Virus record (IMG/VR): IMGVR_UViG_3300045540_000070 | Location: 1 to 42,950 of that record | DNA: 42,950 nt | Source: a virus | Taxonomy: Duplodnaviria > Caudoviricetes | Strand: one strand, 5' to 3' | In this document: positions 1,571 to 34,211 of the stretch, in pieces | How the letters are laid out: each line of letters starts with the position of its first letter | Position numbering within the stretch: the stretch's first letter is position 1 | Translations under genes and position numbers: made by a program | Notes under the pieces: model-generated | Told to the model about the DNA's origin: nothing | Seen by the model: only the letters and a program-made list of their open reading frames with translations | The model's database searches: none

Positions 1571-3973
1571 TTAAAAAGGTATTTCATCGTTATTAATTTC
1601 TTCTTTTTCGCCCTTGAACTTAATCCATCTACCCGTGTTATTACGTCCTTCTGTCGGCATAACGCCTGTAACAAATAGTCCGTAAGATACTAACCACTTG
1701 TAAAAGATAGTCCGTGATATAGTCATCTTAGCCTTTGGTGCAAAGTCTGGATTGTCTTGGATAAAGTCAAGGTATAAATCTTGCTTGTATAGCGTTTCTC
1801 CTAATGCGATTGTTGGTTTATTATCCATTAGTCCAGCCCATTCAATAAACTCGTGGCACGTATCGGCTGATAACTTACGAATCTTAAGATTAACAAACTC
1901 ACTCTTAACTAAACCTGTAGTTAAATATGCTTGTAAACTTTTAATCATATAATTATCAAACTTACACCACTCACCATTATCCCACTCAGTAAATAACAAT
2001 CTACCGAATTCAACCAATGGCGTGAACTCCTTGGTGTAGAACTGCTTGAACTCCAGCTCCCACTTACGTCTCTCGAATGAGTTACCCTTACCCTTGATGG
2101 CGTAGTTAGTCGTGATAATAATCTTAGGAGACTTCGCGAACGGGATATGCATCGCATCTTTGTTCTTTCTCTCTAAGGTTATACCCTCTGTGATCACACT
2201 GAACAGCCTCTCAAAGTTAAAGTGTTTCTTAACGTCGTCAAACGCAAGTACCTGTGTATCAACCGATACTGTCTGGTATGGAAATGAACTATCGAAGTTC
2301 ACGCTCTTACCGTCAATGAATGCCAGCTTCTTCATCTGAGATATTGCATTGGTAAATAACCCCTTTCCTGTTCCTCCCTCTGGATTATCTGTTATTACCT
2401 CGTCATTTAGAATAACGGCAGGACAATAAGATAAATTCTTGTATCCGTGCATAAGGAATCCAATCGTGCTCTCAAGAGAGTCAATGCGAGTCTGCTCATC
2501 GTTTGATACGTTTGCTATAAATGTCTTGAAGTCACAGTCTGTGATCTCACAAATGTTGAAATCTCTATCTATAACCTGATCTGCCCAGATATAACCACCA
2601 AGGTCGATATAGTCAATAATATCAATATTGTCCTTGTCTATGCGGACAGCGCAATTCTTGTAATAAAGGTACGCATTATCCTTGTCGTCCTCCATGAAGT
2701 ATACATCAACAGAAGATAGTAGCGATAGGAAGTCTTCCTTAAAGAACCTAGTCTTATCAGCGAAGTAGTTGTACACTGACAGATCATCTACGGTCTGTAG
2801 GTGGTTTAGTACGAAGTCCTTGATCTCATCCTCTGACGTGTGGTCGATGAGGTTGTTCGTTACCTTTACAAAGATGTAACTCTTACCACCATTCGGCATG
2901 TATTTGAAGAATCCATTGTCCTCCAAAAACTCTCTGAATAGGTAGTGAATGATGCTGATGGCACCCTTGTCTGACTTGATCCAGTACTTCTGAGTTGCCT
3001 CGTCTCTGTCAATGGTATCAATCACATCGTCAATTGCGTTCTCCGATATGTTAAGCTCCATAAGCTCTGACTTGATATCTTTCTTAGATACACCGCGTTT
3101 AATCTTCTGACGAACTTGCGTTAACTTATCATCGTCTTCATAAAACTTTGTACCGAACTTCTGTGTCTGTCTGTAGGCTGAGTCGATGATAGTTCTTATT
3201 TCTTGAATTGGGAAGTCTTGACTGTCGAACTGACCTGCCACATACTCAGCAAGCGACTTACTTACACCATAGTCATTGAATGCTGATGCTAATATGAATA
3301 CGTTATTATTACGCTCACCATCTACAAGCCCATACTTTTTAGTCCACCACTTCATAAGAATATCGATAATCTTGTTCTCGTTAGTGATTGGAATAGTAGG
3401 TTTAGAGGTATCCCTATCCATCTCTATATACTCGTGCTCAGACAGTGTATTCCATAACTCACTAGATGTGTTCACATAAATCTCTGGGTCGTATGACTCA
3501 TAGCATACACGTGATATGTTCTTGGACGTCTTATCGAAATATTTTGAGTTGAAGTGTTTCTCAAGCGAGTTGAAGTAGTTCTTGTGGTTCTCAATGTCTC
3601 TTGGCACTTTAACAATTACTTTTAGTCCGTTCCCTGACGGAGAAACAAATACTGAGTAGGTGTACTTATTCTTTGAAATTAGAGCCTTATCAACCTTCAT
3701 TTCTTTCTCGGTAGCATAACCATCAAAGTCTAGGCAAATGAATCCCGAGTGCTCTAAAATAGCCTTATCCTCACGCTTTGTAAACTTACCTGAGAAACAT
3801 ACCGCTGGTAGTTGTTGCTTAAGTATATTTCTTGTAGACTTATCCTTCTCGTTACGAATACCTTCAACAATGTCTTTAGAGGCACCGTTCTGTATTCTGT
3901 CAAGCATAACCCCAATCGTTTTAAAGAATGGTGTTGATGTTGACTTGATGTTTTTGAAGATAGTTATTTCCAT
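1571..3973 (-). CDS. DNA primase-helicase (BT4734/VirE-N-like primase, PriCT-like domain, C-terminal P-loop helicase)
   Basis: 800 aa; HSGFICLDFD and FVSPSGNGLK primase-like motifs, GERNN, Walker A EGGTGKG, Walker B LAFDD, acidic DEIPF tail. Confidence 0.85.
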   Translation of the reverse strand: MEITIFKNIKSTSTPFFKTIGVMLDRIQNGASKDIVEGIRNEKDKSTRNILKQQLPAVCFSGKFTKREDKAILEHSGFICLDFDGYATEKEMKVDKALISKNKYTYSVFVSPSGNGLKVIVKVPRDIENHKNYFNSLEKHFNSKYFDKTSKNISRVCYESYDPEIYVNTSSELWNTLSEHEYIEMDRDTSKPTIPITNENKIIDILMKWWTKKYGLVDGERNNNVFILASAFNDYGVSKSLAEYVAGQFDSQDFPIQEIRTIIDSAYRQTQKFGTKFYEDDDKLTQVRQKIKRGVSKKDIKSELMELNISENAIDDVIDTIDRDEATQKYWIKSDKGAISIIHYLFREFLEDNGFFKYMPNGGKSYIFVKVTNNLIDHTSEDEIKDFVLNHLQTVDDLSVYNYFADKTRFFKEDFLSLLSSVDVYFMEDDKDNAYLYYKNCAVRIDKDNIDIIDYIDLGGYIWADQVIDRDFNICEITDCDFKTFIANVSNDEQTRIDSLESTIGFLMHGYKNLSYCPAVILNDEVITDNPEGGTGKGLFTNAISQMKKLAFIDGKSVNFDSSFPYQTVSVDTQVLAFDDVKKHFNFERLFSVITEGITLERKNKDAMHIPFAKSPKIIITTNYAIKGKGNSFERRKWELEFKQFYTKEFTPLVEFGRLLFTEWDNGEWCKFDNYMIKSLQAYLTTGLVKSEFVNLKIRKLSADTCHEFIEWAGLMDNKPTIALGETLYKQDLYLDFIQDNPDFAPKAKMTISRTIFYKWLVSYGLFVTGVMPTEGRNNTGRWIKFKGEKEEINNDEIPF

Positions 3974-4160: not shown

Positions 4161-4244
4161 AATTGTAATACATTTATAGCGTTTATTTAGGAGTTAGTGG
4201 CAAGCGTAGGACAGCACTCCGCCCCACGCTTCGCCAAAAACACT

Positions 4245-4460
4245 TTACCATTCAGCCACAAACATTTGTCTGTAACCGCAATGATTTACAAGGAAATCAA
4301 TTTTACCCCACGAGCCATTACCTAAGTCGTGTTGTGGCCGAAATTGTCCTTTGTTCGATTTTCCATTTAACACGAGAACCTCTTTGTTTTGGGTTACTCT
4401 TACATCGTGTTTTTTGCGAAGCTGGAAAAGCACTTCGTCCTCATTGTGTTTACGTGCCAT
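4245..4460 (-). CDS. cassette 1 hypothetical protein
   Basis: 71-aa ORF between junction 4193 and site 1. Confidence 0.65.
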   Translation of the reverse strand: MARKHNEDEVLFQLRKKHDVRVTQNKEVLVLNGKSNKGQFRPQHDLGNGSWGKIDFLVNHCGYRQMFVAEW

Positions 4461-4485
4461 AATTTAAGCAGTTTAAAACGCCAGC

Positions 4486-4619
4486 CACTAACATTGTATA
4501 ACTGCAAGTGGGGGCTGTGTGCCACATTGCAAGTTATTGCTCCTAATTTAGTTTAGTGTCAATGTGAAGGTTCGGAGCTTTCAATCCCCCACCTGACAGT
4601 TATACAAGTATCGTTACAA
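4486..4619 (+). repeat. attC-like site 1 (134 bp)
   Basis: CACTAAC...GTTACAA; arms ttgtataactg/cagttatacaa and caagtggggg/cccccacctg. Confidence 0.85.
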
Positions 4620-4625
4620 GTAATC

Positions 4626-5369
4626 CTAAGCAACATCGTCGAACATCGTTACTTGATTAATATTTGATTTAGAAATTATTCCTCTTGCAGTATTAAAGAT
4701 TGTTTTTCCTGCTTCATAATCTACCAGGTTACGAGCCATTTTAAGCATCGGTTGTTCTCCTTTGTATTTGGTAAAATCGTATTTATGAAATTCACACAAT
4801 CCTTTTAATTCTTGTTTAGCAGATGAAATAGCAAATCTTCTATCTCCTAAATCGTTAGGTAATTTAAAGTTTGTCCAATACAAATGGCGACCTCTTTTTA
4901 TCGCAGGAACTAATGGCTCATAATAAGGGATTACATTTTCAACAACCCATTTACCTGTTTTATAATAATGCTGTAAAAACAAAATTTCTTGATATAATTT
5001 CATATCGGGATAAATTGCTTCTGTTGTAGTTTCATAATTTGAACTATTCCAATACCTGGCTCTTGAATGACTTGGACAAGGTGGCGAACTCCATATAAAA
5101 TCAAATTCTTTATAATTATCAAGTAAATACTGGTGTGCATCCGCTACAATTACCTTATCATTTGGAAATCTCTCTTGATACAATTTTGCTGCTTCCGGGT
5201 CAAGTTCTACGGCTGTAACTTCACAATCTTCCCATAGCAGTCTATTACCACCTAAACAAGCATATAAATTCAAAACACGAAAAGGACTACTTGTAACACG
5301 TGCTATACTCAATGCCTCATTCTCTGTATTATCGTTTTCTAACATCTTTTTGTTTTTAATAATTAACAT
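4626..5369 (-). CDS. cassette 2 DNA (cytosine-5) methyltransferase
   Basis: Motif I LNLYACLGG, motif IV WSSPPCPSHS, motif VI VVENV; start (5369 or 5345) lies inside site 2. Confidence 0.85.
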   Translation of the reverse strand: MLIIKNKKMLENDNTENEALSIARVTSSPFRVLNLYACLGGNRLLWEDCEVTAVELDPEAAKLYQERFPNDKVIVADAHQYLLDNYKEFDFIWSSPPCPSHSRARYWNSSNYETTTEAIYPDMKLYQEILFLQHYYKTGKWVVENVIPYYEPLVPAIKRGRHLYWTNFKLPNDLGDRRFAISSAKQELKGLCEFHKYDFTKYKGEQPMLKMARNLVDYEAGKTIFNTARGIISKSNINQVTMFDDVA

Positions 5370-5413
5370 TCGTTTTCATAAATCGGCACTAAGTATAGCA
5401 CCATACGTTATGT
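5291..5413 (+). repeat. attC-like site 2 (123 bp)
   Basis: TTGTAAC...GTTATGT; arms gtgctatact/agtatagcac. Confidence 0.85.
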
Positions 5414-5414
5414 A

Positions 5415-5648
5415 TCATTTTTTCTTACGCATTATATCAGCAATAGCATAATTCCATCTTTCCATCAATTCACCATCCGCTTGGTTATGGAAAATTTTAA
5501 TCATTTCCATACTTGTAAATCTTTCAGGTGAACCTTTAAGGTAGAAATGAGAATTACCACTTGGTTTATAATCAGGAAATGATTCCGTTTTATAATGTTG
5601 TATATCTAAATCCACCAACCAATCTAACATCTTTTCTAAATTTTCCAT
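5415..5648 (-). CDS. cassette 3 hypothetical protein
   Basis: ORF fills the cassette; likely start MENLEKM at 5648 (alternative 5669). Confidence 0.6.
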   Translation of the reverse strand: MENLEKMLDWLVDLDIQHYKTESFPDYKPSGNSHFYLKGSPERFTSMEMIKIFHNQADGELMERWNYAIADIMRKKK

Positions 5649-5660
5649 AATAAAAACGAT

Positions 5661-5791
5661 ACATAACAAAGTGTATAAGTAATAACCGAGTTATGTGGTT
5701 TATTTAAGTTACTACTTCTATTTAACATTATCTTTAATTCAAACTTTTGTACTTCTAAATCGGTTACTACTCATACACTCAACCGTTATGT
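5661..5791 (+). repeat. attC-like site 3 (131 bp)
   Basis: ACATAAC...GTTATGT; arms agtgtataagtaataaccga/tcggttactactcatacact. Confidence 0.85.
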
Positions 5792-5977
5792 GATAGTTTC
5801 AGAGACGTTTATTTTATAAAACATATTCGGATGACATCCAAAAATATAAAACCATCCATCTTCTAAATTTACAAGTCCGTCTTCGTGAATATGAACTATT
5901 TTATGTTTTTTACCGTGATATAAAACCACTTCTCCAACTTTATAAGTCAGTTTGTCTATGTAATATCTATCGTTCAT
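5786..5977 (-). CDS. cassette 4 hypothetical protein
   Basis: 63 aa; its TAA stop is the TTA of the GTTA junction. Confidence 0.55.
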   Translation of the reverse strand: MNDRYYIDKLTYKVGEVVLYHGKKHKIVHIHEDGLVNLEDGWFYIFGCHPNMFYKINVSETIT

Positions 5978-6293
5978 TACAAACTAATTTTAAAGCTGAA
6001 ATCCCACCTTGTTTTGAAGTTTCATCTATATGTAAATCGTTTATGATTTTAATAGCTTTTTCTACTTTATTAAAAAAATTAAAATCAATGATTAAAGGAA
6101 TTACAAATAAATCAAAATATTCATCATTATCAGTTACACCTCCGCAGAAAAATTCTCCAGAAGAAACTATAAAGCATTCAGGCTTTCCGTTTGACCGATA
6201 TTCTGTTTTTAGACAAATTGTTTCTCCAAATAAAAATAATCCAATAGGGCAATTCCCTAATCTTACTTTTCGTTTCTTTTTTGTAATTAGCAT
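5967..6293 (-). CDS. cassette 4 hypothetical protein
   Basis: 108-aa ORF. Confidence 0.6.
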   Translation of the reverse strand: MLITKKKRKVRLGNCPIGLFLFGETICLKTEYRSNGKPECFIVSSGEFFCGGVTDNDEYFDLFVIPLIIDFNFFNKVEKAIKIINDLHIDETSKQGGISALKLVCNER

Positions 6294-6313
6294 CTTTTTT
6301 ATTTTTAAATTAA

Positions 6314-6433
6314 TTATTCTTCAATATTAAATATGTAGTCTATAATGATGTAGAAAAAACCAAAAAAAGTCATTATTGGAATTAATATTGGTCTTAATAT
6401 TTTAACTTCTAAAATTCTATTTATTATTTTCAT
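6314..6433 (-). CDS. cassette 4 small hydrophobic peptide (39 aa)
   Basis: Translated by hand: MKIINRILEVKILRPILIPIMTFFGFFYIIIDYIFNIEE. Confidence 0.4.
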   Translation of the reverse strand: MKIINRILEVKILRPILIPIMTFFGFFYIIIDYIFNIEE

Positions 6434-6434
6434 A

Positions 6435-6728
6435 TTACTTCTGTTTATGTAAGTTTAAAAAATTAATAATATCTTGACCTTGAAAATAAACTGTTCCTTT
6501 TGTGCTTTCTTCTCCATTCATTTTTATTTGAATGTAGATTATTTTAGTTTTATCACGCCACGTTTGAATTGTTCTTACGCTTACATTTAAAACTTCCGCT
6601 AATTCTTTAACGGTATAATAAGCATCAGGATTTATTCCTTGTTTTACACTCGGTATTGCTAATTCGGTTTCGTTTAATTGTTGGATTAAACTTTCCATTG
6701 TATCCATTAATTTCTCTGTATTGTCCAT
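6435..6728 (-). CDS. cassette 4 excisionase-like / MerR-type HTH (HTH_17-like) DNA-binding protein
   Basis: YYTVKELAEVLNVSVRTIQTWRDK followed by ...VYFQGQDIINFL. Confidence 0.75.
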   Translation of the reverse strand: MDNTEKLMDTMESLIQQLNETELAIPSVKQGINPDAYYTVKELAEVLNVSVRTIQTWRDKTKIIYIQIKMNGEESTKGTVYFQGQDIINFLNLHKQK

Positions 6729-6825
6729 TTTTTATCTGTATTATTGTTTTTATTGGCTTTAACACCATTTTAATTATCTGTATTTTGTTAAGGGATTTGT
6801 TAGAACTTATGTTAAAGAAACCATC

Positions 6826-6956
6826 ACATAACAAGCGTTTGGCGAGATTGCTGATTTTGTGGTTCATTCACGTTTTCGTTTCGCATCATATTTTATTTTA
6901 AGTTGAAGTTTTATTTTTCCGAAGTCAGCAACCTCGCCAAGTTGCAAACGTTAGCT
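6826..6956 (+). repeat. attC-like site 4 (131 bp)
   Basis: ACATAAC...GTTAGCT; arms ttggcgagattgctga/tcagcaacctcgccaa. Confidence 0.85.
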
Positions 6957-7184
6957 GCAAGCTGGCGGACTTGGCAACTCCATCCAATGTGTTACAGTGG
7001 CTTCTTTGACTGGGTATTCACTTTCAAAATGCGTCCCCTTCCAATATTCAATACCCTCGCCCCATTCTGTATAAGTTAATACTTTGACATACTTACCTCC
7101 ATCTGGTAGTCTGTCTTTTACAGAAATCCAGCCAGCAGCTAACATTGCATTGGCGTTATTGCCGTTTAGTTCTTTGTTTGACAT
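6951..7184 (-). CDS. cassette 5 DUF551-like protein
   Basis: WISVKDRLP...VTHWMELPSPP; starts in site 5 and stops on the junction. Confidence 0.8.
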   Translation of the reverse strand: MSNKELNGNNANAMLAAGWISVKDRLPDGGKYVKVLTYTEWGEGIEYWKGTHFESEYPVKEATVTHWMELPSPPACS

Positions 7185-7263
7185 TTTGTATAAATTTTAA
7201 TCATTAGTAATTCTGTTCAACTTTTGTGCATCGGCAACAAACGCCAATGCTTTACCGTTAGCA
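7137..7263 (+). repeat. attC-like site 5 (127 bp)
   Basis: AGCTAAC...GTTAGCA; arms gcattggcgttattgccg/cggcaacaaacgccaatgc. Confidence 0.85.
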
Positions 7264-7698
7264 GTAACTTTTGAAAAGCGTAACGCAAATCAGAATAATT
7301 AATGCTATAAAATTTATCCAATTAAAAAGCCTTACATTTTGATACCAAGCGGAATCAACTATAAAATTTCTTGCACCATCAAGATACATCAATGGAATAA
7401 AAGTTATAAATCTAAATGGAATCCATAATAAATTAAAAATTATGCACCAAATTGTTATCTGTAATCCTGTAATTGGCAACTTAATTCCTTTGTGTAATTG
7501 CCTAAATGAAAAAGTTGTGAAGTCAAAAAATAAATATACATAATGACCTTTTTTAATATTCTTACCTATTCTAAAAAATCCGTTATGAAAACCAAAATAG
7601 TATTTATCATAATTAGAAAATTTACGAACCTTAAAGAACAAAGCTACTGCTAACAGCATTTTGTGGCAATTGCGGGGTTTAGGTTTATTTTCAAGCAT
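7258..7698 (-). CDS. cassette 6 putative membrane protein
   Basis: 146 aa with hydrophobic segments; starts in site 6 and stops on the junction. Confidence 0.6.
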   Translation of the reverse strand: MLENKPKPRNCHKMLLAVALFFKVRKFSNYDKYYFGFHNGFFRIGKNIKKGHYVYLFFDFTTFSFRQLHKGIKLPITGLQITIWCIIFNLLWIPFRFITFIPLMYLDGARNFIVDSAWYQNVRLFNWINFIALIILICVTLFKSYC

Positions 7699-7782
7699 TG
7701 TTTTTTAATTTAAAGTTTAGTCTATATTTGTATGGTTGGTGTTAAATTTTCCGCAATTGCCACAAAATGCGAAACGTTAGCA
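7648..7782 (+). repeat. attC-like site 6 (135 bp)
   Basis: TGCTAAC...GTTAGCA; perfect 20-bp arms gcattttgtggcaattgcgg/ccgcaattgccacaaaatgc. Confidence 0.9.
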
Positions 7783-7783
7783 G

Positions 7784-8023
7784 TTATTTTCCCAATCGCA
7801 CAAATCCGCCTTTATCTTGTGTTAGATATTCAACAGAATCAACTTCTATAATTGAATATCTGTATCCATTTATAACTCTTTCATCAATCAATTTTATTCT
7901 GTTATTGGACTTCCTGTTAATAGAATTTGATTCTTTTTCGGTGCATCCGACAAATAAAACAACTGCTAACAGCACATAAGCGCAAGCAATTAATTGGGTC
8001 TTGAATTTAAATTTTGTTTTCAT
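7784..8023 (-). CDS. cassette 7 putative lipoprotein
   Basis: Basic N-terminus, hydrophobic core, LFVGC lipobox-like motif. Confidence 0.65.
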   Translation of the reverse strand: MKTKFKFKTQLIACAYVLLAVVLFVGCTEKESNSINRKSNNRIKLIDERVINGYRYSIIEVDSVEYLTQDKGGFVRLGK

Positions 8024-8099
8024 TTTGTTATTATTTATGATTAATTTAATTATTATTTTTTATCGGCAATTGCCTTCGCTTATATGCAAAACGTTAGTG
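7964..8099 (+). repeat. attC-like site 7 (136 bp)
   Basis: TGCTAAC...GTTAGTG; arms gcacataagcgcaagcaatt/aattgccttcgcttatatgc. Confidence 0.85.
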
Positions 8100-8105
8100 G
8101 CAAGG

Positions 8106-8330
8106 CTAAGAACGATTATCCATATCAACAAGTTTATCAAACTTATATTTCATATCAGTCCACCAACTACCATCTCCAAGATGCCACCCACACCATTGCT
8201 CAATAAGTTTTGAATTATCCATTTCATTAATGTCTTCATCATAGGTATTATCATTTTGGTCGTCAGCACCTTGTCTTTGTCTTACTTCGCCTAAAATTCC
8301 AAGTACCTTTAATTTTTCAATATTTGTCAT
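8106..8330 (-). CDS. cassette 8 hypothetical protein
   Basis: 74-aa ORF filling the cassette. Confidence 0.65.
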   Translation of the reverse strand: MTNIEKLKVLGILGEVRQRQGADDQNDNTYDEDINEMDNSKLIEQWCGWHLGDGSWWTDMKYKFDKLVDMDNRS

Positions 8331-8358
8331 TTTTATTTAATTTTGTGAAAAGCCCAGC

Positions 8359-8489
8359 CACTAACAGCGTGTATAAAAAATGTCGGGTTCTCGGTTAATT
8401 TAAAGTTTTGTAATTATAATTAAGTTTTGCGTTTGCTTAACGTTTCGGTTTCAAAATCCGCCACTTCTTATACACGCAAAACGTTATGT
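8359..8489 (+). repeat. attC-like site 8 (131 bp)
   Basis: CACTAAC...GTTATGT; arms gcgtgtataaaaaatgtcgg/ccgccacttcttatacacgc. Confidence 0.85.
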
Positions 8490-8495
8490 GCCATT

Positions 8496-8738
8496 CTATT
8501 CCATCCAAACGTATTTACTTGGGTGATATTTTTTTGGTCTTTTAAGAGTTTGTTTTTTATCGCAAACTGCACATCTTCTACTAAATCCTTCTTCAAGCAA
8601 TACTTTACATCTGTTATCTTTAAATATCGACCATTTATAAATTTCCCAATCGTGAAAAGAAAAACGGCACATAACAGCGGTTATAAGCAATTGCCACTTA
8701 TGTATTAATTTTGAAAATAGTCTTGTACTTGTATTCAT
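8496..8738 (-). CDS. cassette 9 small Cys/His protein
   Basis: CRFSFHDW...RRCAVCDK; starts inside site 9. Confidence 0.6.
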   Translation of the reverse strand: MNTSTRLFSKLIHKWQLLITAVMCRFSFHDWEIYKWSIFKDNRCKVLLEEGFSRRCAVCDKKQTLKRPKKYHPSKYVWME

Positions 8739-8802
8739 TGTTTATAAATTGAAAGTTAAGGCAGTTTTATTGGCAACTGCTTATAGCCACATAACGTTAT
8801 CA
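8669..8802 (+). repeat. attC-like site 9 (134 bp)
   Basis: ACATAAC...GTTATCA; arms ggttataagcaattgcca/tggcaactgcttatagcc. Confidence 0.85.
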
Positions 8803-9111
8803 CTCAGCTTGGTCGGAATCCGTAAAAGAAATAATATCTATAATTTGAATAATAAATAAGGTAATGCACATAACTAAATATAACCAATGTCTATATCCCC
8901 AATGCCAAGTTGGGTCGTGAAATCCACATTCAGCGTAATTACAATGTTTATAAATAGTATTGTAAATACTATCATTTGGAGTTCCACTTCCTAAACATTT
9001 CCAATCTCCTAAAAAGGAGTGTAAATAATCGCCAACAAATGTTGAAAATATTGCGATTGTGAAAAGTAAAATAACTTTTAAAGAAATTTTTTGTGATTTG
9101 TTAAATTTCAT
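8800..9111 (-). CDS. cassette 10 two-TM membrane protein
   Basis: Two hydrophobic helices flanking a Cys/His loop (HDPTWHWGYRHW). Confidence 0.65.
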   Translation of the reverse strand: MKFNKSQKISLKVILLFTIAIFSTFVGDYLHSFLGDWKCLGSGTPNDSIYNTIYKHCNYAECGFHDPTWHWGYRHWLYLVMCITLFIIQIIDIISFTDSDQAE

Positions 9112-9156
9112 TTTGATTTAGTTTATAATTAATAATTGTGTTTAAAAAAGCCGATA

Positions 9157-9290
9157 ATATAACAATAGCTATAAGTAATTAAGGCAACAGTCTTTGATTT
9201 AAAGATTTGTTCTCTGTCCTTTTTATATCAATTTTCAATTTAGAAAATCGGTATTTCATTCCTTAACTACTCATAGCAATACCGTTATTT
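9157..9290 (+). repeat. attC-like site 10 (134 bp)
   Basis: ATATAAC...GTTATTT; arms gctataagtaattaagg/ccttaactactcatagc. Confidence 0.85.
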
Positions 9291-9383
9291 CAACTTATCC
9301 TTCCACTCTTGGTAAATCCAAGTGTTTACCCATATAAATAGTACGAAGAAACATCCTACTAAAAATGCTGCTATATTTTCCAT
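9285..9383 (-). CDS. small membrane peptide (32 aa) whose stop codon is the array's right junction
   Basis: Translated by hand: MENIAAFLVGCFFVLFIWVNTWIYQEWKDKLK; coupled to 9383..9589. Confidence 0.5.
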   Translation of the reverse strand: MENIAAFLVGCFFVLFIWVNTWIYQEWKDKLK

Positions 9384-9636: not shown

Positions 9637-9960
9637 TTAGAAAGGAAGTGAATCTTCCTGTACTTGTTGTTGTAACGGCTGTGCTCCTTCAGATAGTTTT
9701 TTAATTTTCCATCCTTTAATTGAATTGAAATACTTGTCAATCCCCTCAGCATTTGTCCATTTACGACCTCCGATATTGATTGAAACTTCTACAACGTCAC
9801 CAACTTTGTATGGATCGATTAGGTCTGATTTGTCTCCACCAAACTCAATTAAGATACTTTGTGGATATTTTTCATCCGTGGTTATTACTAATTCACTTTT
9901 TTTGAATTTTTCGTTCCCAACATTTAAACTAATTACTTCAATTTTTCCTTCTAATGTCAT
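9637..9960 (-). CDS. DUF3127-family putative ssDNA-binding protein
   Basis: KYPQSILIEF...VEVSINIGGRKW...YFNSIKGW, SSB-like EDSLPF tail. Confidence 0.8.
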   Translation of the reverse strand: MTLEGKIEVISLNVGNEKFKKSELVITTDEKYPQSILIEFGGDKSDLIDPYKVGDVVEVSINIGGRKWTNAEGIDKYFNSIKGWKIKKLSEGAQPLQQQVQEDSLPF

Positions 9961-10018
9961 TTTATTTGATTTTAAATTTTAACCTACCTTTTTAGTCTGT
10001 TGTCGGCTCTTCAGTTTG

Positions 10019-10026
10019 CAAATATA
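10019..10026 (-). promoter_or_regulatory. Bacteroidetes -7 promoter box
   Basis: TATATTTG upstream of the SSB gene. Confidence 0.55.
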
Positions 10027-10029
10027 TAA

Positions 10030-10752
10030 TTATAATTCTTGTTCCGCAATAAAATTGTTGATATCTTCTGTGGCTTTGTCGCTAAAGAATTTATTGTAAA
10101 CATCAACTGCTTGTAAGACCTTAGTTCGTCCACTTAAAATAAAGTCGTCTGAAGGCGTGAAGATTCCAAGTCGATGACTTTTCTTACAAATTACATAGAA
10201 AATTAATGGCTTATTGAATAGTTGTTGGTAGATATATGCTTGTGAATCATAGTTGTATTTTCTAGCGCTCCAACGAAAGTCGTCAATTTCCGAGGTTGTT
10301 TTAATGTCGATCAAAAAGTCTTTACAAATTATATCGCACTTGCCTTTGAATGGTAATCCAAATAATTCCATTGTTGCAGGCTCTTCGTAAATATTACCGT
10401 CTGCGTAAATATCTTCATAGAATTTAAAGTTTCCTTTTATAATCGAAACCAACTTTTCTAACTCGTCTTTCTCATTTTTAAGCAATAACAATTTACCTTG
10501 CGAAGCATCCTTATAAATGTTTGTGTTTCTGGTTGATGCTTCAACTATTTCAAAGTTACCAATCTTTTCTGGCTCTAAAATAGCCGTGTGTAGATACGAA
10601 CCTTGTAGCATTGGTAAAGTTGGTTCGGTTCGTACTTTAAATAGCTTAGGATTGCTTAAAAGCGTTCCTATGTCGCTGTTACTAATATACTTTGAGCCGA
10701 ACTCTCCGTAGTAGTTCTCGTCCGACCTTAATTTTTCTATTATTTCTTTCAT
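10030..10752 (-). CDS. PD-(D/E)xK exonuclease (RecE/Exo VIII-like, DUF3799-like)
   Basis: GSYLHTAILEP, FKGKCD..LIDIKTT, YDSQAYIY motifs. Confidence 0.8.
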   Translation of the reverse strand: MKEIIEKLRSDENYYGEFGSKYISNSDIGTLLSNPKLFKVRTEPTLPMLQGSYLHTAILEPEKIGNFEIVEASTRNTNIYKDASQGKLLLLKNEKDELEKLVSIIKGNFKFYEDIYADGNIYEEPATMELFGLPFKGKCDIICKDFLIDIKTTSEIDDFRWSARKYNYDSQAYIYQQLFNKPLIFYVICKKSHRLGIFTPSDDFILSGRTKVLQAVDVYNKFFSDKATEDINNFIAEQEL

Positions 10753-15276: not shown

Positions 15277-15915
15277 TTAAATTTTATTACCTTTCTTAAA
15301 ATTATCTATTGCCCATAATGGTTGAAAGTTTGTGTAGTGATTTAGTTTAATTAGGTGTTCTTCATCTGTTGCACGTGATACGGGGTAGATATGGTCTAAA
15401 TGCCACAGTCCTTGATTTTCCCATGTCATTCCTTCAGTGAACTGATTTTCTAAGTGGGTTTTAAACTCTTCAAACGAGCATCCAAGTATTTTATAAGTTT
15501 TAGATTTTTTAGTGTAGCTATTTCCTTTTATTGATATTCTTATTAAAGTTGATATATTACATCTTAATTTAAATAATGGATCAACTAACTTTCTATTTTT
15601 AAAGTAATAACTTATTTTATTTTTATTTTTAGATGTGTATTTTTTATTTTGTTCTTTTATATTTTCTTTGTTGTTTAAACGATATTGTTTTTTATTTAAT
15701 TTTATACATTCTTTGTTGTCTATGTAATATTTTTTAGATTTTTTTATTATATATTCTTTATTGTCTAAATAATATTTTTTATTATATTCTTTATTATTTA
15801 TTCTATATTCTTTTTCACATTCTTTACATTTTGATTGATAGCCATTTTTTTTAGATTTATTTTTATAAAAATAAATAAATTCCTTCTCAACTTTGCATTT
15901 TGTACAAACTTTCAT
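15277..15915 (-). CDS. HNH endonuclease-like protein with N-terminal Zn finger
   Basis: CTKC...CKEC, K/N/Y-rich helix, WHLDHIYP...NHYTNFQPLWAIDNFKKGNK; start taken at MKVCTKC. Confidence 0.85.
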   Translation of the reverse strand: MKVCTKCKVEKEFIYFYKNKSKKNGYQSKCKECEKEYRINNKEYNKKYYLDNKEYIIKKSKKYYIDNKECIKLNKKQYRLNNKENIKEQNKKYTSKNKNKISYYFKNRKLVDPLFKLRCNISTLIRISIKGNSYTKKSKTYKILGCSFEEFKTHLENQFTEGMTWENQGLWHLDHIYPVSRATDEEHLIKLNHYTNFQPLWAIDNFKKGNKI

Positions 15916-15930
15916 ATTATTAAATAACAA

Positions 15931-16031
15931 AATCCCATCAATTCAGCGGTAATGTGAGACACGCTTCCTTGACAGGATTGTTAAATATTTTCGGGTACAA
16001 TGTGTCTCACTTCATTGTGAGTACAAAGATA
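15931..16031 (-). promoter_or_regulatory. TATCTTTG promoter plus structured (pseudoknot) leader, copy 1
   Basis: Interleaved inverted repeats 16002-16010/15954-15962 and 15969-15979/15931-15941. Confidence 0.6.
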
Positions 16032-16039
16032 CAATAAAT

Positions 16040-16384
16040 TTATGATATTATTTTAAAAGTTTTTGTATAGTTTAAAAGTTCATTTTTTATTCTGTCACAA
16101 AATCTATCATCGTTTAAAATAGTTTTTTTAGCGTTGTCAATGTAGTTTTTAGCCTCGATAACCGATTTAAAAAATATATTGCTATTACTTCTTATCGGAA
16201 ACATTTTTTGAGGTGCTAAACGTTTAAAAAATCCTAAGTTGTCAACTTCAAAATTAAGCTCGTTTTTTTTCTTTTTTGTTTCGTGTATAAAATTTATTGG
16301 TAATTCATTTAAATAAAAACTATCTACTTTTTTACTTCCTTTTGTTATATAAAATGTTGTTTTCATTATTTCGTACGTTTTCAT
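16040..16384 (-). CDS. hypothetical early protein
   Basis: 114-aa ORF. Confidence 0.5.
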   Translation of the reverse strand: MKTYEIMKTTFYITKGSKKVDSFYLNELPINFIHETKKKKNELNFEVDNLGFFKRLAPQKMFPIRSNSNIFFKSVIEAKNYIDNAKKTILNDDRFCDRIKNELLNYTKTFKIIS

Positions 16385-16638: not shown

Positions 16639-16967
16639 ATTTTTATAGGTTTCCTGTTGTTGCCTTTTAGTAGGTTGTTTAATGCTGTTTTAAAACTTTT
16701 TGTTTCTAAATAAATATGCAATTCATTTGCGTTTGTTCCTGCTTGGTATTCTGAAACTTCATAAATACCATTTTCAAAAATAATTTGCATGCCGTCAAAT
16801 TTGGATCCGTGCTTTTTTGAATAGTTGTAAAGGTCAATATTAATTTTAGAAAAATATTGATCCGAATAATCCAGTACTTTAAAAGATATATTTTGCCCCT
16901 GCATTGTATCTGATAAAATTTTGTTTATTATCTTGGTTTCTTGTGCTCCGTGCTCGTATGTTGTCAT
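16629..16967 (-). CDS. hypothetical early protein
   Basis: 112-aa ORF. Confidence 0.55.
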   Translation of the reverse strand: MTTYEHGAQETKIINKILSDTMQGQNISFKVLDYSDQYFSKINIDLYNYSKKHGSKFDGMQIIFENGIYEVSEYQAGTNANELHIYLETKSFKTALNNLLKGNNRKPIKIWN

Positions 16968-19145: not shown

Positions 19146-19763
19146 TTAAATTAATTTTAATTGTGTGTTATTTATTATTTTGTTTGATTTCATTAAATCA
19201 TCCATCGCCCAAAGAGGTTGAAAGTTTGTATAATGATTAAGTTTTATTAATTCGTTTTCACTCTTTGCGCTTGATATTGGTATAATGTGATCCAGGTGCC
19301 AAAGGTTTTTATTTTCCCAATTCATACCTTTTGAAAATTGTATTTCTATATAGTTTTTAAAATCTTCAAATGAACATCCTAAAATTTCATGGGTTCTGGA
19401 TGCTTTTGTATAACCTCTTTTTGTTATTGAGTTTCTTATTGCGGTTCTTATTATTGCGGTTAATCTAAATAAAGGATCTATTTGTTTTTTATTTTTAACG
19501 TATAGACTTATTCTGTCTTTATTTTTTAAATAACTTATTCTGTTTCTTTCTTTTTTGGTCAATGTCGATTTTAATACTTTTCTTTCTATCGTCAAAGATT
19601 GTTTTGCTAGTCTTAAAAGTTTTTTATTTTCAGCCTCTCTTAGTTTGGTTCCTTTTTGATAGTCATTTAATTGCTTTGCTACTTGGTCAATTTGGTACTT
19701 ATTAATCGCGTCTCTCGCCTCGTCAATTGATTGCTTAATGTAGTTTTCGTTTCTGTATTTCAT
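19146..19763 (-). CDS. HNH endonuclease-like protein (paralog of 15277..15915)
   Basis: LGCSFEDFK...WHLDHIIP...LIKLNHYTNFQPLWAMDD. Confidence 0.85.
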   Translation of the reverse strand: MKYRNENYIKQSIDEARDAINKYQIDQVAKQLNDYQKGTKLREAENKKLLRLAKQSLTIERKVLKSTLTKKERNRISYLKNKDRISLYVKNKKQIDPLFRLTAIIRTAIRNSITKRGYTKASRTHEILGCSFEDFKNYIEIQFSKGMNWENKNLWHLDHIIPISSAKSENELIKLNHYTNFQPLWAMDDLMKSNKIINNTQLKLI

Positions 19764-20660: not shown

Positions 20661-20957
20661 ATGGAAAGATTTTGTTTTGCTTGCCGAACTAAAAAAGATG
20701 TTCGTAAATTCTCACCTGATCCGTTTAATAAAAAAGACGGGCTTTCGACTTGTTGCGCACAATGTAATAAGGAACTTTATAAACGTATGGATGCTAAAAT
20801 GGTTTATGATACTAACAACTTAAAAGCGCGCGAAAAAGAAAGGAAGCGCAAAGCCGAAGTTTTAAGGCTTGAAAATTTAAAGGAGTTAGAATATATCAAA
20901 GCAAAGAAACAGCGTGCCTATGATCTTGCAATGATGTTACAGAAGCGAGACAACTAA
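20661..20957 (+). CDS. Zn-finger protein resembling the HNH N-terminal domain, without a nuclease domain
   Basis: CFAC...F....KKDGL...CAQC. Confidence 0.65.
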   Translation: MERFCFACRTKKDVRKFSPDPFNKKDGLSTCCAQCNKELYKRMDAKMVYDTNNLKAREKERKRKAEVLRLENLKELEYIKAKKQRAYDLAMMLQKRDN

Positions 20958-22143: not shown

Positions 22144-23745
22144 ATGAGTACAGGATATTCTCCGAAGGACCTATTATTCGACAAAGAAGGTAGGGATAAA
22201 TTAATTAACGGCATCACTACAATGTCTAAAGCAGTAAAGAGCACACTCGGTCCACGAGGTAAAACAGTGTTAATTGAAAGTCCAAATCACACGCATGGAA
22301 TTACGGTCACAAAAGATGGAATTTCAGTAGCAAAGTCAATTTTCTTATTAGACCCAGTAGAAAACTTAGCGGTAAAAATGATGAAAGAAGCAGCTGATCG
22401 TACAGCCACAAGTGCTGGTGATGGGACTACAACTTCTATCGTACTTACAGAAGCAATTGTACTACAAGGTCAAGAGCTTTTGAACGACAAACATAATGTA
22501 ACAGAAGTAATACGACACATTAACGACATTACGACATCAATCGTATCAAGATTAGAAAAGAAAGCAAAGAAAGTTAGTGGTAAAACATTACGTAATGTAG
22601 CATCAATATCAGCGAATAACGATTCGGAACTTGGGGCTATAATCGCTGGTACGTACGAAAAGGTCGGTAAGGACGGTATTGTAACAATCGAAGACTCTCA
22701 GACATCGGAGACATATACGAGTGTAACAAATGGTATTAAGATAGAAAGAGGATATACATCTAATATGTTTGTTAACGACCATAAGAAAGACGAGTGCATT
22801 TTAGACAACGTATTAGTATTGGTTACCGACCAGGAGATTAGTAATATTTTATCTATTGAAAAGATATTAAAGACTGTTATTCAAGAGCAGAAGAAGTTAT
22901 TAATTATCGGTACTTGTAGTCAAAACGTAATTAATACACTAGCCGCAAACGTAGTAAAGAACAACCTTAAGCTATGTAATATTATACCTCCTCAGTTTGG
23001 GTACAAGAGGAATGAGTTGATGGGTGATATTGCGTTGGCTGTAGGTGCTAAGTACTTCTCAGAGAGCACAGGAGACGATTTGAGTTTAATGGAGATTAAT
23101 GATTTAGGAAAAGCAGACAAGATTATTGTAGGAAGAGATAATACAGTAATTGTACGTTCAGAAATTGCAACAGATGAAGTAACTCAAAGAGTAGCTCAAC
23201 TATGGGATGCTTATAACTTATCGGATAAAAAGGCAGACAAGGACTTTATCAAGCAACGTATCGCTAGTTTAACAGGTGGTATTGGAGTTATTTATGTAGG
23301 TGGTAACTCAGACCTTGAGCAAAAGGAACGTAAGGATAGGGTTGACGACGCTGTATGTGCGGTTAGGTCTGCGTTAGAGGAAGGTATCTTACCAGGTGGT
23401 GGATTAGCCTTGTTCAGTGAGTCTTACAGTATTATTGCTGATGCAGACGATACAATTGACGATATTAGTCCAAATAAGTATGTGGCTATGCATATTATGG
23501 CACGTGCAATACAATCACCACTCTTGCAGATTATGACTAATGCTGGATTGGACGGATATGAGGTAATGGAGTTATCGTTTGTTAAGGACTGGGGGTATGA
23601 TGTTAAGAATGAGGTGTATGGAGACATGTTTAAGATGGGTATTATCGACCCATTAAAGGTAACAAAGAACGCACTTAAGAACGCAGTAAGCGTAGCAACG
23701 ACAATATTAAGTACAAATGCAATTATAACAATAACACGAGCGTAA
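22144..23745 (+). CDS. groEL: phage chaperonin GroEL
   Basis: TLGPRG, TKDGISVAK, GDGTTT, ILPGGG, IIDPLKV; TATATTTG box at 22111-22118. Confidence 0.97.
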   Translation: MSTGYSPKDLLFDKEGRDKLINGITTMSKAVKSTLGPRGKTVLIESPNHTHGITVTKDGISVAKSIFLLDPVENLAVKMMKEAADRTATSAGDGTTTSIVLTEAIVLQGQELLNDKHNVTEVIRHINDITTSIVSRLEKKAKKVSGKTLRNVASISANNDSELGAIIAGTYEKVGKDGIVTIEDSQTSETYTSVTNGIKIERGYTSNMFVNDHKKDECILDNVLVLVTDQEISNILSIEKILKTVIQEQKKLLIIGTCSQNVINTLAANVVKNNLKLCNIIPPQFGYKRNELMGDIALAVGAKYFSESTGDDLSLMEINDLGKADKIIVGRDNTVIVRSEIATDEVTQRVAQLWDAYNLSDKKADKDFIKQRIASLTGGIGVIYVGGNSDLEQKERKDRVDDAVCAVRSALEEGILPGGGLALFSESYSIIADADDTIDDISPNKYVAMHIMARAIQSPLLQIMTNAGLDGYEVMELSFVKDWGYDVKNEVYGDMFKMGIIDPLKVTKNALKNAVSVATTILSTNAIITITRA

Positions 23746-24012
23746 ATGAGTAACTTTCAACCAATAAACAAATATATAATCATCAAAACGATTGATGAAG
23801 AGATAAAAACAGAATCAGGGTTGCTACTTACTGGTAGTGATGCTGATAAGTTTAGATACAAGAAAGGATTAGTAGTAAAACCAGGTACTAATGTAGAAGT
23901 AATCAAAGAAAACGACTTAATTTACTACGATAAAGGAGCTGGCTATACTATGTTGATTGAAAACGTGCCTTACACGATTATTCGGGAGGCTGATGTGGTG
24001 GTAGTCCTCTAG
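23746..24012 (+). CDS. groES: co-chaperonin GroES
   Basis: QPINKYIII...KTESGLLL...YTIIREADVVVVL, directly after groEL. Confidence 0.9.
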   Translation: MSNFQPINKYIIIKTIDEEIKTESGLLLTGSDADKFRYKKGLVVKPGTNVEVIKENDLIYYDKGAGYTMLIENVPYTIIREADVVVVL

Positions 24013-33644: not shown

Positions 33645-34211
33645 ATGAAATCACCATATTGCTTCATCGTAAAGCCATTAGATGGTAAGCGATACAATAA
33701 TACTAAAAGTGTAGGTGGTATTGATTTAGTAGTAAGTACATCTCAAGAAGACCATACCGTTTCCAATAGATTAGGAGTAGTAGTGTCTACGCCTATAGGA
33801 TATAAAGGAGATGTAATAGTAGGGGATTTATTGCTCGTACATCATAATGTATTTAAGTTATATTATGATATGAAAGGAAACGAAAAGAGTGGTGCTAGTT
33901 ATCTTAAAGACGACTTATTTATGGTGGATAATGAACAGTTTTTTATGTATTTTCATGACAACAAATGGAGTGCTCACTCTAAGTATTGTTTTATAAAACC
34001 TATACAAACACAAGATTCTATTATTCATAAAAATACAAAAGAAGAACCCTTAATAGGTACTATAGAATATATAAATCAAGAACTAATAGATTTAGGAATG
34101 AATGTAGACGATATTATAGCTTTTGAGCCAAATAGTGAGTACCCATTTTATATAAATGATGAGAAGCTATACAGAATGCTTACAAATAATATTACTGTAA
34201 AATGGAATTAA
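33645..34211 (+). CDS. tandem GroES-like protein
   Basis: Two Cpn10-like units (FIVKP...GVVVSTP...VGD; FIKP...GTIEY...EKLYRM). Confidence 0.6.
   Translation: MKSPYCFIVKPLDGKRYNNTKSVGGIDLVVSTSQEDHTVSNRLGVVVSTPIGYKGDVIVGDLLLVHHNVFKLYYDMKGNEKSGASYLKDDLFMVDNEQFFMYFHDNKWSAHSKYCFIKPIQTQDSIIHKNTKEEPLIGTIEYINQELIDLGMNVDDIIAFEPNSEYPFYINDEKLYRMLTNNITVKWN

Follow-up and report, generated by a model that had tools for sequence, protein, structure and literature searches.

Two position-fixed mismatches mark ten probable junction hairpins of an integron-like cassette array in a flavobacterial-type phage

What kind of recombination site separates the genes of a cassette array in a flavobacterial-type phage, and which enzyme reads it? 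The window (the whole 42,950-nt stretch that was analysed, IMG/VR record IMGVR_UViG_3300045540_000070) contains ten folded-DNA sites separating swappable gene cassettes. The sites are TAAC...GTTA hairpins of ~125 nt, and in all ten an AAC...GTT core and its inner arms form a stem. The false rate of the hairpin detector is 0.05 per 43-kb shuffled window (20 shuffles), and a sequence profile made without the window sites returns the same ten hairpins as its sole window matches at E < 0.01. An Rfam scan of the window gives zero family matches at gathering threshold or at E<=10. The features of the array are as follows.

4176..4204, plus: array head, double-stranded site with a putative attI-like role; left arm of 11 bp (4176-4186), then a 7-bp centre whose last base is the G of G|TT (4193); cassette 1 supplies the right arm; no upstream hairpin
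4194..4613, plus: cassette 1; ORF 4245-4460 minus, 71 aa, no family; outer A4203/C4482; hairpin 1 4489-4616; inner A4507
4614..5407, plus: cassette 2; C5 DNA methyltransferase (PF00145), ORF 4626-5369 minus; outer A4623/C5287; hairpin 2 5294-5410; inner A5312
5408..5785, plus: cassette 3; ORF ending 5415 minus, 77-84 aa, no family; outer A5417/C5657; hairpin 3 5664-5788; inner A5682
5786..6950, plus: cassette 4; ORFs 5786-5977, 5967-6293 and 6435-6728, all minus, the last an excisionase-like HTH protein (PF12728); outer A5795/C6822; hairpin 4 6829-6953; inner A6847
6951..7257, plus: cassette 5; DUF551 protein (PF04448), ORF 6951-7184 minus; outer A6960/C7133; hairpin 5 7140-7260; inner A7158
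7258..7776, plus: cassette 6; ORF 7258-7698 minus, no family; outer A7267/C7644; hairpin 6 7651-7779; A7669 paired (only such site)
7777..8093, plus: cassette 7; ORF 7784-8023 minus, 79 aa; outer A7786/C7960; hairpin 7 7967-8096; inner A7985
8094..8483, plus: cassette 8; ORF 8106-8330 minus, 74 aa; outer A8103/C8355; hairpin 8 8362-8486; inner A8380
8484..8796, plus: cassette 9; ORF 8496-8738 minus, 80 aa; outer A8493/C8665; hairpin 9 8672-8799; inner A8690
8797..9284, plus: cassette 10; ORF 8800-9111 minus, 103 aa; outer arms degenerate (A8806); hairpin 10 9160-9287; inner A9178
9284..9300, plus: array tail; last G|TT, then phage sequence without the position-11 A

The core TAA serves as the stop codon of the ORFs of cassettes 5 and 6. 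The first ATG of the cassette 2 ORF falls in a hairpin, and its true start is probably downstream.

The cassettes are joined at G|TT, and each carries its downstream hairpin. Among 225 pairs of near-identical hairpins, the left flank alone is shared in 24 and the right flank alone in none (the 2 listed are self-overlaps); both pairs of near-identical cassettes are consistent with a G|TT junction and with the hairpin travelling with the upstream cassette. Specifically, run X1 joins 4611 to 5406, a variant missing exactly cassette 2 (794 nt), although the shorter flank of this joint spans only 25 nt and the window itself may derive from X1. Hairpin 2 is additionally found in X1 after a different cassette end, which is explained by hairpin reuse (199/225 pairs) but is also compatible with exchange on the AAC side rather than solely at G|TT. 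Other runs contain a near-identical piece of cassette 1 starting at 4193 (X8), the entire cassette 3 unit 5406-5790 in a different context (X4), the cassette 4 body 5780-6842 with another hairpin (X14), a cassette 6 piece 7256-7756 (X3), and cassette 10 pieces beginning at 8793 (X3, X9, X12). Cassette 2 is 73.5% alike to a cassette in phage hemulen6-1, and the hairpin 8 family is common to many contigs. A relative (L373) matches the window from 9287 onward without the array, and the array tail probably represents the right-hand half of the original insertion site. Hairpin-less array heads with attI1-like spacing lie 46-52 bp from the recombinase start codon in three phage contigs (L136, L152, L178) and 440 bp from it in a fourth; in two others (L376, L186) the head position is as in the window, with different first cassettes.

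An earlier note on this DNA had proposed that two position-invariant mismatches define the sites, and both are borne out. The 15th base after AAC (+15) is A in 10/10 window sites and faces C in nine, site 6 being paired; in sites 1 and 5, one extra 3'-arm base is needed to bring +15 into register. Background mismatch at the other stem positions is 10/150, so that the probability of at least 9/10 at a single position is ~4e-9 after multiplication by 16. The inner A.C is present in 173/195 clustered sites of phage and cellular origin, with flanking positions paired in 93-95%; it is absent from ~10% of sites outside the window. Pairing from +3 to +21 is 75-100% observed versus 28-53% shuffled, except at +7 (100 versus 91) and at +15. 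RNAalifold finds compensatory change in 17/21 pairs, in line with the covariation that the earlier note had suggested looking for. A third near-fixed G.T at +1 closes the core in 64/65 sites. Elsewhere in the stem, a top-strand G.T occurs at +6 in 16-23% of sites, counter to a pure bottom-strand bias, and optional wobbles occur at +10 and +12 in ~20-27% of sites with the same one-way polarity as the fixed wobbles.

The spacer before GTT exceeds the AAC-side spacer by 4, 3, 3, 3, 3, 4, 4, 4, 4 and 2 nt in sites 1-10, as the earlier note had described, but it is not fully unpaired as claimed there: +3 to +5 are paired in 77-93% of sites, and the site centre is mostly a one-sided 2-4-nt bulge.

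The outer mismatch lies at position 11 counted from the G of GTT, where A is opposite C in cassettes 1-9; cassettes 1, 5 and 8 have an additional mismatch at position 10. The outer arms of cassette 10 are degenerate, and the tcAgctt/aagcCga match claimed for it requires a 1-nt shift. The outer base is A in 99% of 187 phage cassettes (47 loci), opposite C in 78% and paired in 5%; in 43 cellular cassettes (13 loci) the values are 98%, 79% and 2%. Neither mismatch is thus randomly placed in the larger set. The partner of the outer A, counted in the 132 of 133 cassettes with A, is C in 104, A in 12, G in 8 and T in 8, which indicates that pairing is avoided rather than that a single partner is demanded. 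Complementarity does extend past the 7-bp core, reaching position 13-16 in the window cassettes; this extended stem forms only between both ends of one cassette, namely in the circular form. Consistent with this, same-cassette ends pair at 66-88% versus 27-59% for neighbouring array ends (positions 5-15 without 11).

Once a cassette is circular, its site forms an almost unbroken stem, the centre of which measures 6 nt on one strand and 8-10 nt on the opposite strand. The mismatches occupy exactly dyad-related places, each at position 10 of an 11-bp arm flanking the 6-nt centre, and the arms have T at position 2 and A/T at position 10. Arm position 2 is T in 100% (outer, a value fixed by the detector) and 95% (inner); arm position 10 is A in 99%/94% and paired in 6%/10% (outer/inner).

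The polarity of the mismatches bears on the possibility that the hairpins act as RNA, with G.U in the transcript, as regulatory leaders or RNA-route intermediates. The wobble strand is the coding strand in phages, where the genes of 163/167 cassettes with an ORF, and all main window genes, run opposite to the classical direction (not reading away from attI). However, cellular cassette genes mostly run in the classical direction (58/67) with wobble polarity unchanged: inner/outer A.C is found in 155/130 of 163 phage cassettes with bottom-strand genes and in 54/48 of 58 cellular cassettes with top-strand genes. The polarity is therefore independent of gene strand and is not an mRNA feature. This largely refutes the RNA explanation, which we regard as scarcely credible; the lack of an Rfam family match and an outer stem that links two ends of a whole cassette also speak against it.

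When both strands of the circular junctions are folded, the bottom (minus-strand) fold is more stable in 10/10 window junctions (z -3.6 to -7.8), and in 246/281 phage and 65/96 cellular sites. The energy gap is small (mean 1.2-1.9 kcal/mol) and in part a product of the wobbles themselves.

These properties resemble those of classical attC sites read by IntI in class 1 integrons and Vibrio VCR arrays. Those arrays (PMC5027507, PMC2727003) share the tandem cassettes, the AAC...GTT core, the G|TT junction and the hairpin carried with the upstream cassette; also shared are a favoured bottom-strand fold, T at +7, a +1 wobble (6/10 classical controls) and, at the array head, the spacing of attI1. 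The differences concern the strand marks. The bulged +9 base (position 16, 5' top arm) is present in 10/10 class 1 attC controls and in 0/10 window sites with the same aligner, so the classical extrahelical G16 is absent. The inner T falls at the helical register of the classical T23/T24; T is there in 94%, opposed by G and not bulged, and the same register carries a bulged A in 7/10 controls. Unlike classical attC, the window sites have a second, symmetric wobble in the outer arm, an outer stem of ~15 bp rather than 7, and a centre 2-4 nt longer on one side (1 in controls) instead of an unpaired 5-6 nt per arm. The sites are thus non-canonical, as the earlier note had it, in that extrahelical bases are absent, but they are not unrelated to attC: the core, the G|TT junction, the favoured folding strand, T at +7 and often the +1 wobble are retained. 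They are best read as a cousin with a wobble where the bulged T stands.

Could they instead be a CALIN, with attC sites of the usual kind that have diverged somewhat and are recombined by a classical integron integrase? Besides the shared core, junction, ~125-nt length, T at +7, +1 wobble and head spacing, PMC5027507 describes some attC sites that still recombine well under IntI1 after loss of all extrahelical bases, so their absence is no proof that IntI cannot act. Phage CALINs (Qi et al. 2023, PMC9892861) are likewise cassette-site clusters with no integrase nearby, but IntI1 was the enzyme used to assay those sites, in attC x attI1 reactions; the terms Bacteroid, Flavobacterium, Cellulophaga and Xer are absent from the main text of that paper. 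Against this explanation, besides the missing +9 bulge, single-base extras number 30 on one arm versus 3 on the classical extrahelical arm in 281 related sites (an extra base on the 5' top arm in 3/281 and 1/96). The site profile R1 has 0 matches in 6 class 1 integron loci and 0 in 18 intI loci, the latter with short flanks, and according to PMC9024848 IntegronFinder 2 reported one complete integron in Bacteroidetes proper. The recombinases described below also argue against it, and we consider it very unlikely.

The 71%-complete record yielded no recombinase gene, so the enzyme, for which the earlier note proposed a distinct specificity, is inferred from relatives; in these, the recombinase beside the array is indeed not an integron integrase. 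A tyrosine recombinase lies at the array head in 6 phage contigs. In the array-linked enzymes, boxes I and II are 86-92 aa apart, versus 133-139 in 19 IntI, corresponding to absence of the IntI-specific insertion (~42-47 aa short), and the proteins (n=11) score 136-208 bits on TIGR02249, below the cut-off of 265. Their best NCBIfam match is XerA_Arch (185-230 bits, cut-off 220); they score below the XerC and XerD cut-offs and form a clade apart from XerC/XerD in a tree that held no archaeal XerA. The gene of the short form points away from the array, as intI does; that of a longer form has the array's orientation. Sites lie near 15/20 cellular homologues, with the recombinase upstream of 44/46 nearby cellular sites. 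The site profile matches 69/121 sampled Bacteroidota genomes, and the linked recombinase occurs in 40; sites are present in 35/40 genomes with the gene and 34/81 without a strong match (Fisher p 1.5e-6, kinship among genomes uncontrolled). A sigma-70 scan for a Pc-type promoter shows no excess, Bacteroidota promoters being outside its scope.

A role for host XerC/XerD as the enzymes acting on the folded sites, by analogy with CTX-phage integration at dif and with the neighbouring recombinase a bystander, is quite improbable. The 11-6-11 dyad is the geometry of dif, and PMC5357621 describes two such arms with a 6-nt centre in Xer/dif and IMEX systems, including archaeal XerA, and folded single strands as possible substrates (~150 nt for the CTX attP); moreover, the record lacks a detected recombinase, and the 34/81 genomes have sites without an array-type gene. 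But 0/3 XerC/XerD loci have sites nearby, the separate clade sits beside phage array heads and upstream of cellular sites, and the arm sequences differ among cassettes, the sites being many, variable and arrayed rather than a single chromosomal one. The Rfam motif Flavo-1 (RF01705; PMC9723704) is also described as a repeated Flavobacteria hairpin in either orientation to genes, but its alignment rows in the PMC2864571 supplement show another sequence. A literature search found no paper on this wobble-marked cassette system.

Thus, the ten hairpins are probably junction sites of an integron-like cassette system of Bacteroidota and their phages, with the two mismatches the likely device for the recombinase's choice of the bottom strand. 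In the mechanism we propose, which builds on the classical mechanism and 11-6-11 core (PMC5027507, PMC2727003, PMC5357621), a tyrosine recombinase without the IntI insertion, as at related array heads, would bind one monomer per arm and, at AA|C in the folded bottom strand, carry out a single-strand exchange with the double-stranded head site, across its 7-bp centre. The enzyme would need T at arm position 10 on the strand running towards the centre. An ordinary T:A pair would display this T in both folds; with G.T, only the bottom fold would display T on both arms, the top fold would display C on both, as destabilising A.C, and each double-stranded end would display one C. The wobble would thereby set the orientation of insertion, as extrahelical bases do in classical attC. 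Because only the circle can form the cassette-specific 15-bp outer stem, integration would be favoured over excision. The window phage would depend on an enzyme supplied by its host, by another phage or by the unsequenced part of its own genome.

Alternatively, the system may be the one outlined above, its mismatches being no strand marks but a by-product: two bases conserved independently of each other, a cassette-making scar, avoidance of perfect hairpins, or a block on double-stranded recombination. The varying outer partner and the one-way polarity of the +10/+12 wobbles, as mutational or copying bias could give, are in keeping with this. So is the array head, where position-10 T is found in just 20/34 heads and in 2/4 adjoining the recombinase; a strict need for T is thus unsupported. 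Yet the mismatches are placed in exact dyad on both arms and persist at ~90% while neighbouring pairs freely covary, and a site orientation fixed without extrahelical bases needs some strand mark. We judge a by-product unlikely, and strand marking remains the preferred reading.

According to PMC9024848, Bacteroidetes are held to have almost no integrons. Should the model be right, a large cassette system shared by these bacteria and their phages has gone unnoticed because its site and its enzyme both fail standard definitions. The wobble would give tyrosine recombinases another, simple means of recognising a folded single strand, and one wobble at the regulatory T23/T24 position would offer a testable route from Xer-type to integron-type recombination. 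The hairpins are reused and the 15-bp complementary ends are particular to each cassette, which bears on the question of cassette origin. The system also touches resistance: tet(X3) in pHH1107 has ends of this site type, and 'xerD' genes are reported beside tet(X), without mechanism, in PMC7473080 and PMC11194056. More tentatively, this may be another integron lineage, spread across the phylum, that has not at any time acquired the IntI insertion, uses a symmetric pair of G.T wobbles to encode strand choice and retains the ancestral state of the attC bulged T; phages may tap its cassette pool back to front, and it may be the platform that first picked up Bacteroidota resistance genes such as tet(X3).

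The window, estimated to be 71% complete as a whole linear virus record, represents a tailed phage with a terminase sharing 45% identity with the Flavobacterium elemo phage terminases; Flavobacterium or Cellulophaga are the hosts of most of the 87 terminase matches. The terminase is 74% identical to that of an uncultured spring-water phage. The phage also encodes GroEL and GroES-like proteins (22144-24012 and 33645-34211), and three ORFs are possibly, judging from their profile matches, homing endonucleases. GC content drops to 26-33% over most of the array stretch. No RNA data set is among the matches listed, and runs with a small share were left out of inferences on habitat. The genes flanking the cassette array and the three ORFs are:

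1571-3973, minus strand: primase-like gene, one flank of the cassette array
9637-10752, minus strand: SSB and exonuclease genes, other flank of the cassette array
15277-15930, 19146-19763 and 20661-20957: three ORFs with matches to PHROGs of endonuclease VII or HNH type

The array contains ten TAAC...GTTA hairpins of 117-130 nt, one at the end of each cassette, against 0.05 hairpins found per shuffled window. Hereinafter, the plus strand is designated top, and the C of AAC is numbered 0. Consistent with the earlier note, a recount finds A at +15 in 10/10 sites, facing C in 9/10 (P ~4e-9 against a background mismatch rate of 10/150). The outer mismatch and the extended complementarity of cassette ends are likewise reproduced. 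Specifically, the ends of one cassette are complementary over 13-16 nt, A at position 11 from the G of GTT faces C in cassettes 1-9, and cassettes 1, 5, and 8 have an extra mismatch at position 10. The outer ends of cassette 10 are degenerate and the 3' spacer exceeds the 5' spacer by 2-4 nt, both as previously described. Rfam has no family for the window or the region, the sole match being a snoRNA at E 1.8, and an identity with Flavo-1 was rejected. Two weak, partial profile matches in an AT-rich stretch (16010-16109, E 0.016; 16674-16768, E 0.031) are probably due to chance.

A larger set of sites was collected by pattern scans of viral contigs and genomes, covering 3, 7, and 3 of 64 parts, with neither mismatch position fixed in the patterns. 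The first viral pattern gave mostly chance matches and was replaced by a longer one; because the latter fixes TATA at +7 to +10 for the seed site, the T at +7 is in part a product of the search. Site calling relied on arm complementarity, +15 being excluded from the score. Palindromic or non-Bacteroidota matches (loci L299 and L262) were excluded from the pooled, dyad, and gene-strand counts, and included in the counts of 65 cellular sites and 43 cellular cassettes. Among the matches listed, the inner A.C is present in 89% of 145 clustered phage sites (75 loci), in 85% of 65 cellular sites, and in 173/195 clustered sites when pooled. The outer A, also among the matches listed, is present in 99% of 187 phage cassettes (opposite C 78%, paired 5%, no end-pairing filter applied) and in 98% of 43 cellular cassettes (opposite C 79%, paired 2%). 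The mismatch positions are thus not random. Arm pairing is well above that of shuffled arms, and double changes at 17/21 consensus pairs (65 sites) indicate covariation of the pairs neighbouring the inner mismatch. Pairing to position 15 is found in 66-88% for ends of one cassette vs 27-59% for ends of array neighbours. Phage sites fall into two size classes, ~125 nt and ~87 nt, which have the same arms.

With the outer mismatch at -10 and the inner mismatch at +15, each falls at position 10 within its 11-bp arm, the centre between the arms being 6 nt (0 to +5). Arm profiles from 133 clustered cassettes, leaving out those with fewer than 6/10 end positions paired, agree between the two arms, with T at position 2, predominantly A at 3 and 9, and predominantly T at 11. 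Position 10 is A in 99% (outer) and 94% (inner), and is paired in 6% and 10%, respectively. The geometry is common with dif, which has two 11-bp half-sites around a 6-bp centre (PMC5357621). On the opposite strand, the centre measures 8-10 nt and forms a one-sided bulge, which a third G.T, at +1, closes (64/65 sites).

Folding energies computed with DNA parameters favour the bottom strand in all ten circular junctions of the window, and, among the matches listed, in 246/281 phage and 65/96 cellular sites; all cellular sites in this fold-energy set are at least 115 nt long. After removal of poorly end-paired cassettes, genes lie on the bottom strand in 163/167 phage cassettes with an ORF, and on the top strand in 58/67 cellular cassettes. 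The inner and outer A.C are present in 155 and 130 of the 163 phage bottom-strand-gene cassettes, and in 54 and 48 of the 58 cellular top-strand-gene cassettes. Because the mismatch polarity is equal for genes on either strand, the mark belongs to the site rather than to the transcript and is a feature of DNA, not RNA. The reversed direction of phage cassette genes may be explained by running with the surrounding minus-strand operon. A sigma-70 promoter scan, whose coverage does not extend to Bacteroidota promoters, found 26 vs 30.3 expected.

Classical attC sites have extrahelical bases at position 16 (usually G) and 23/24 (conserved T), and T24 bound in cis stops the inner monomer from cutting (PMC5027507, PMC2727003). 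In ten class 1 attC controls from six plasmid regions, several of them related, the aligner used for the window sites finds a bulged C at +9 and offset 1 in 10/10, and a bulged A at the paired register +15 in 7/10. In contrast, the +9 bulge is absent from all ten window sites, which therefore do not fit a standard attC with typical extrahelical bases. The proposal of a non-canonical attC type stands in this respect, but not as a complete departure from the classical site, since the inner wobble T lies in the register of the classical T23/T24. The site probably acts like attC, yet by the defining features of attC it is no member.

Comparison of hairpins bears on how the sites move. Among 225 pairs at least 88% alike (490 sites), only the upstream flank is common in 24, only the downstream flank truly in 0, and neither in 199; therefore, hairpins are reused among cassettes. 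In two near-identical cassette pairs (219 cassettes), the right hairpin is kept and the left is not. Related loci L376 and L186 have the array head, the hairpin-less start of the array, in the same position as the window and different first cassettes. Three contigs with a primase 88-96% identical (L373, L374, L375) have no array in the region, and give no clean empty site. When eight sequencing runs were compared with the array region, several pieces started within 3 nt of GTT (4193, 5406, 7256, 8093, 8793). Most joints are short-sided and stem from hairpins of other cassettes, and only that of run X1 was used. This joint, 4611>5406, appears to lack exactly the 794 nt of cassette 2 across a common CGTTA, with a short side of 25 nt; X1 may be the source of the window. 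Contig ends at 4616, 4587, and 5406 in X1 are consistent with an assembly bubble. Hairpin 2 is also found in X1 behind a different cassette end, an arrangement that is accounted for by hairpin reuse but may also have arisen by exchange at the AAC side. The core TAA is the stop codon of the gene in three window cassettes (5786, 6951, 7258) and in 33/163 phage cassettes. The outer arm thus comprises the last codons of the gene, which the far end must complement, a clue to how cassettes are made.

Among 245 viral loci searched by motif, six contigs carry tyrosine recombinases, each at the array head and pointing away from the array. The six proteins have 265-289 aa and complete catalytic residues. 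The window record has no recombinase at E<=1, and none of the 71 ORFs scanned matches an integrase in Pfam or PHROG, although the record is incomplete and the phage itself may differ. If a 7-bp centre is placed before G|TT, 28/34 array heads carry the correct arm-2 base; their TAA + 6 nt + G|TT spacing also occurs in attI1 of R751. A profile built from the six recombinases matches 40/121 Bacteroidota genomes, and the site profile 69/121; sites are present in 35/40 genomes with the recombinase vs 34/81 without, kinship among genomes being uncontrolled. Of 49 cellular matches, 20 loci were inspected, picked among top scores for having flank. Sites lie within ~9 kb of the recombinase at 15/20 of them, 44/46 sites being top-oriented and downstream of it; near XerC/D loci, sites were found at 0/3. 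Cellular recombinases (L475-L540) are mostly short (~275-305 aa, divergent from the array) or long (~345-400 aa, co-oriented), with exceptions, e.g. L478, L521, and L539.

Eleven array recombinases score under the IntI, XerC, and XerD cut-offs, with XerA_Arch as the best score, and align to VchIntIA in two pieces. Boxes I and II are separated by 86-92 residues in these enzymes vs 133-139 in IntI, a gap that we take to be the missing IntI-specific insertion. A FastTree of 74 sequences places the array recombinases apart from IntI (support 1.0) and XerC/D (0.99), their own stem being weakly supported at 0.27; midpoint-rooted without an outgroup or archaeal XerA, the tree does not resolve a sister relation to IntI. 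Loss of W157, a VchIntIA residue, was not retained as evidence of different binding, because IntI1 carries R there (PMC2095811).

From these sequences, we infer that strand choice would proceed through the position-10 wobbles. One recombinase monomer per arm would need T at arm position 10, on the strand heading to the centre. A T:A pair would show this T in both folds; a G.T pair would show it in the bottom fold only, whereas C would be shown by the top fold and by either duplex end. The wobbles would thereby set orientation with no need for bulged bases or the IntI insertion. Because the long outer stem exists in the circle only, integration would be favoured. Against a strict need for the position-10 T, it is present in only 20/34 array heads (a count including the window and three like heads). 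About one-tenth of sites lack the inner wobble and a +6 mismatch has opposite polarity, both of which weaken the case for the wobble mechanism.

Literature searches, with subscription papers mostly uncovered, found no description of such a site type or cassette system, and the main text of a phage-integron paper (PMC9892861) names no Bacteroidota taxa. One complete integron is reported in Bacteroidetes proper (PMC9024848), and xerD genes beside tet(X) are noted without sites in the passages describing them (PMC7473080, PMC11194056). In plasmid pHH1107 (FJ012881.1; L368:8790-8835 and 10000-10100), tet(X3) is closely preceded by a shortened array-type recombinase, TnpF (221 aa), and also by a head-like site; its ends are of the cassette type, with the position-11 A facing C, and a truncated hairpin follows (profile match E 5e-7). 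Acinetobacter plasmids have recombinase matches scoring equal to that of pHH1107. In Flagellimonas plasmid NZ_CP092416.1 (L367:9883-12792), a full-length recombinase precedes erm(F) and a gene of the dihydrofolate-reductase family, along with two such sites. The wobble-marked site type is a real, widespread variant of cassette recombination site. The cultured Flavobacterium phage hemulen6-1 (MN812208.1; L371:2037-9459) has 13 such sites and offers a ready test system; of the four DNA methyltransferase genes annotated in its array stretch, one is 73.5% alike to cassette 2 of the window.
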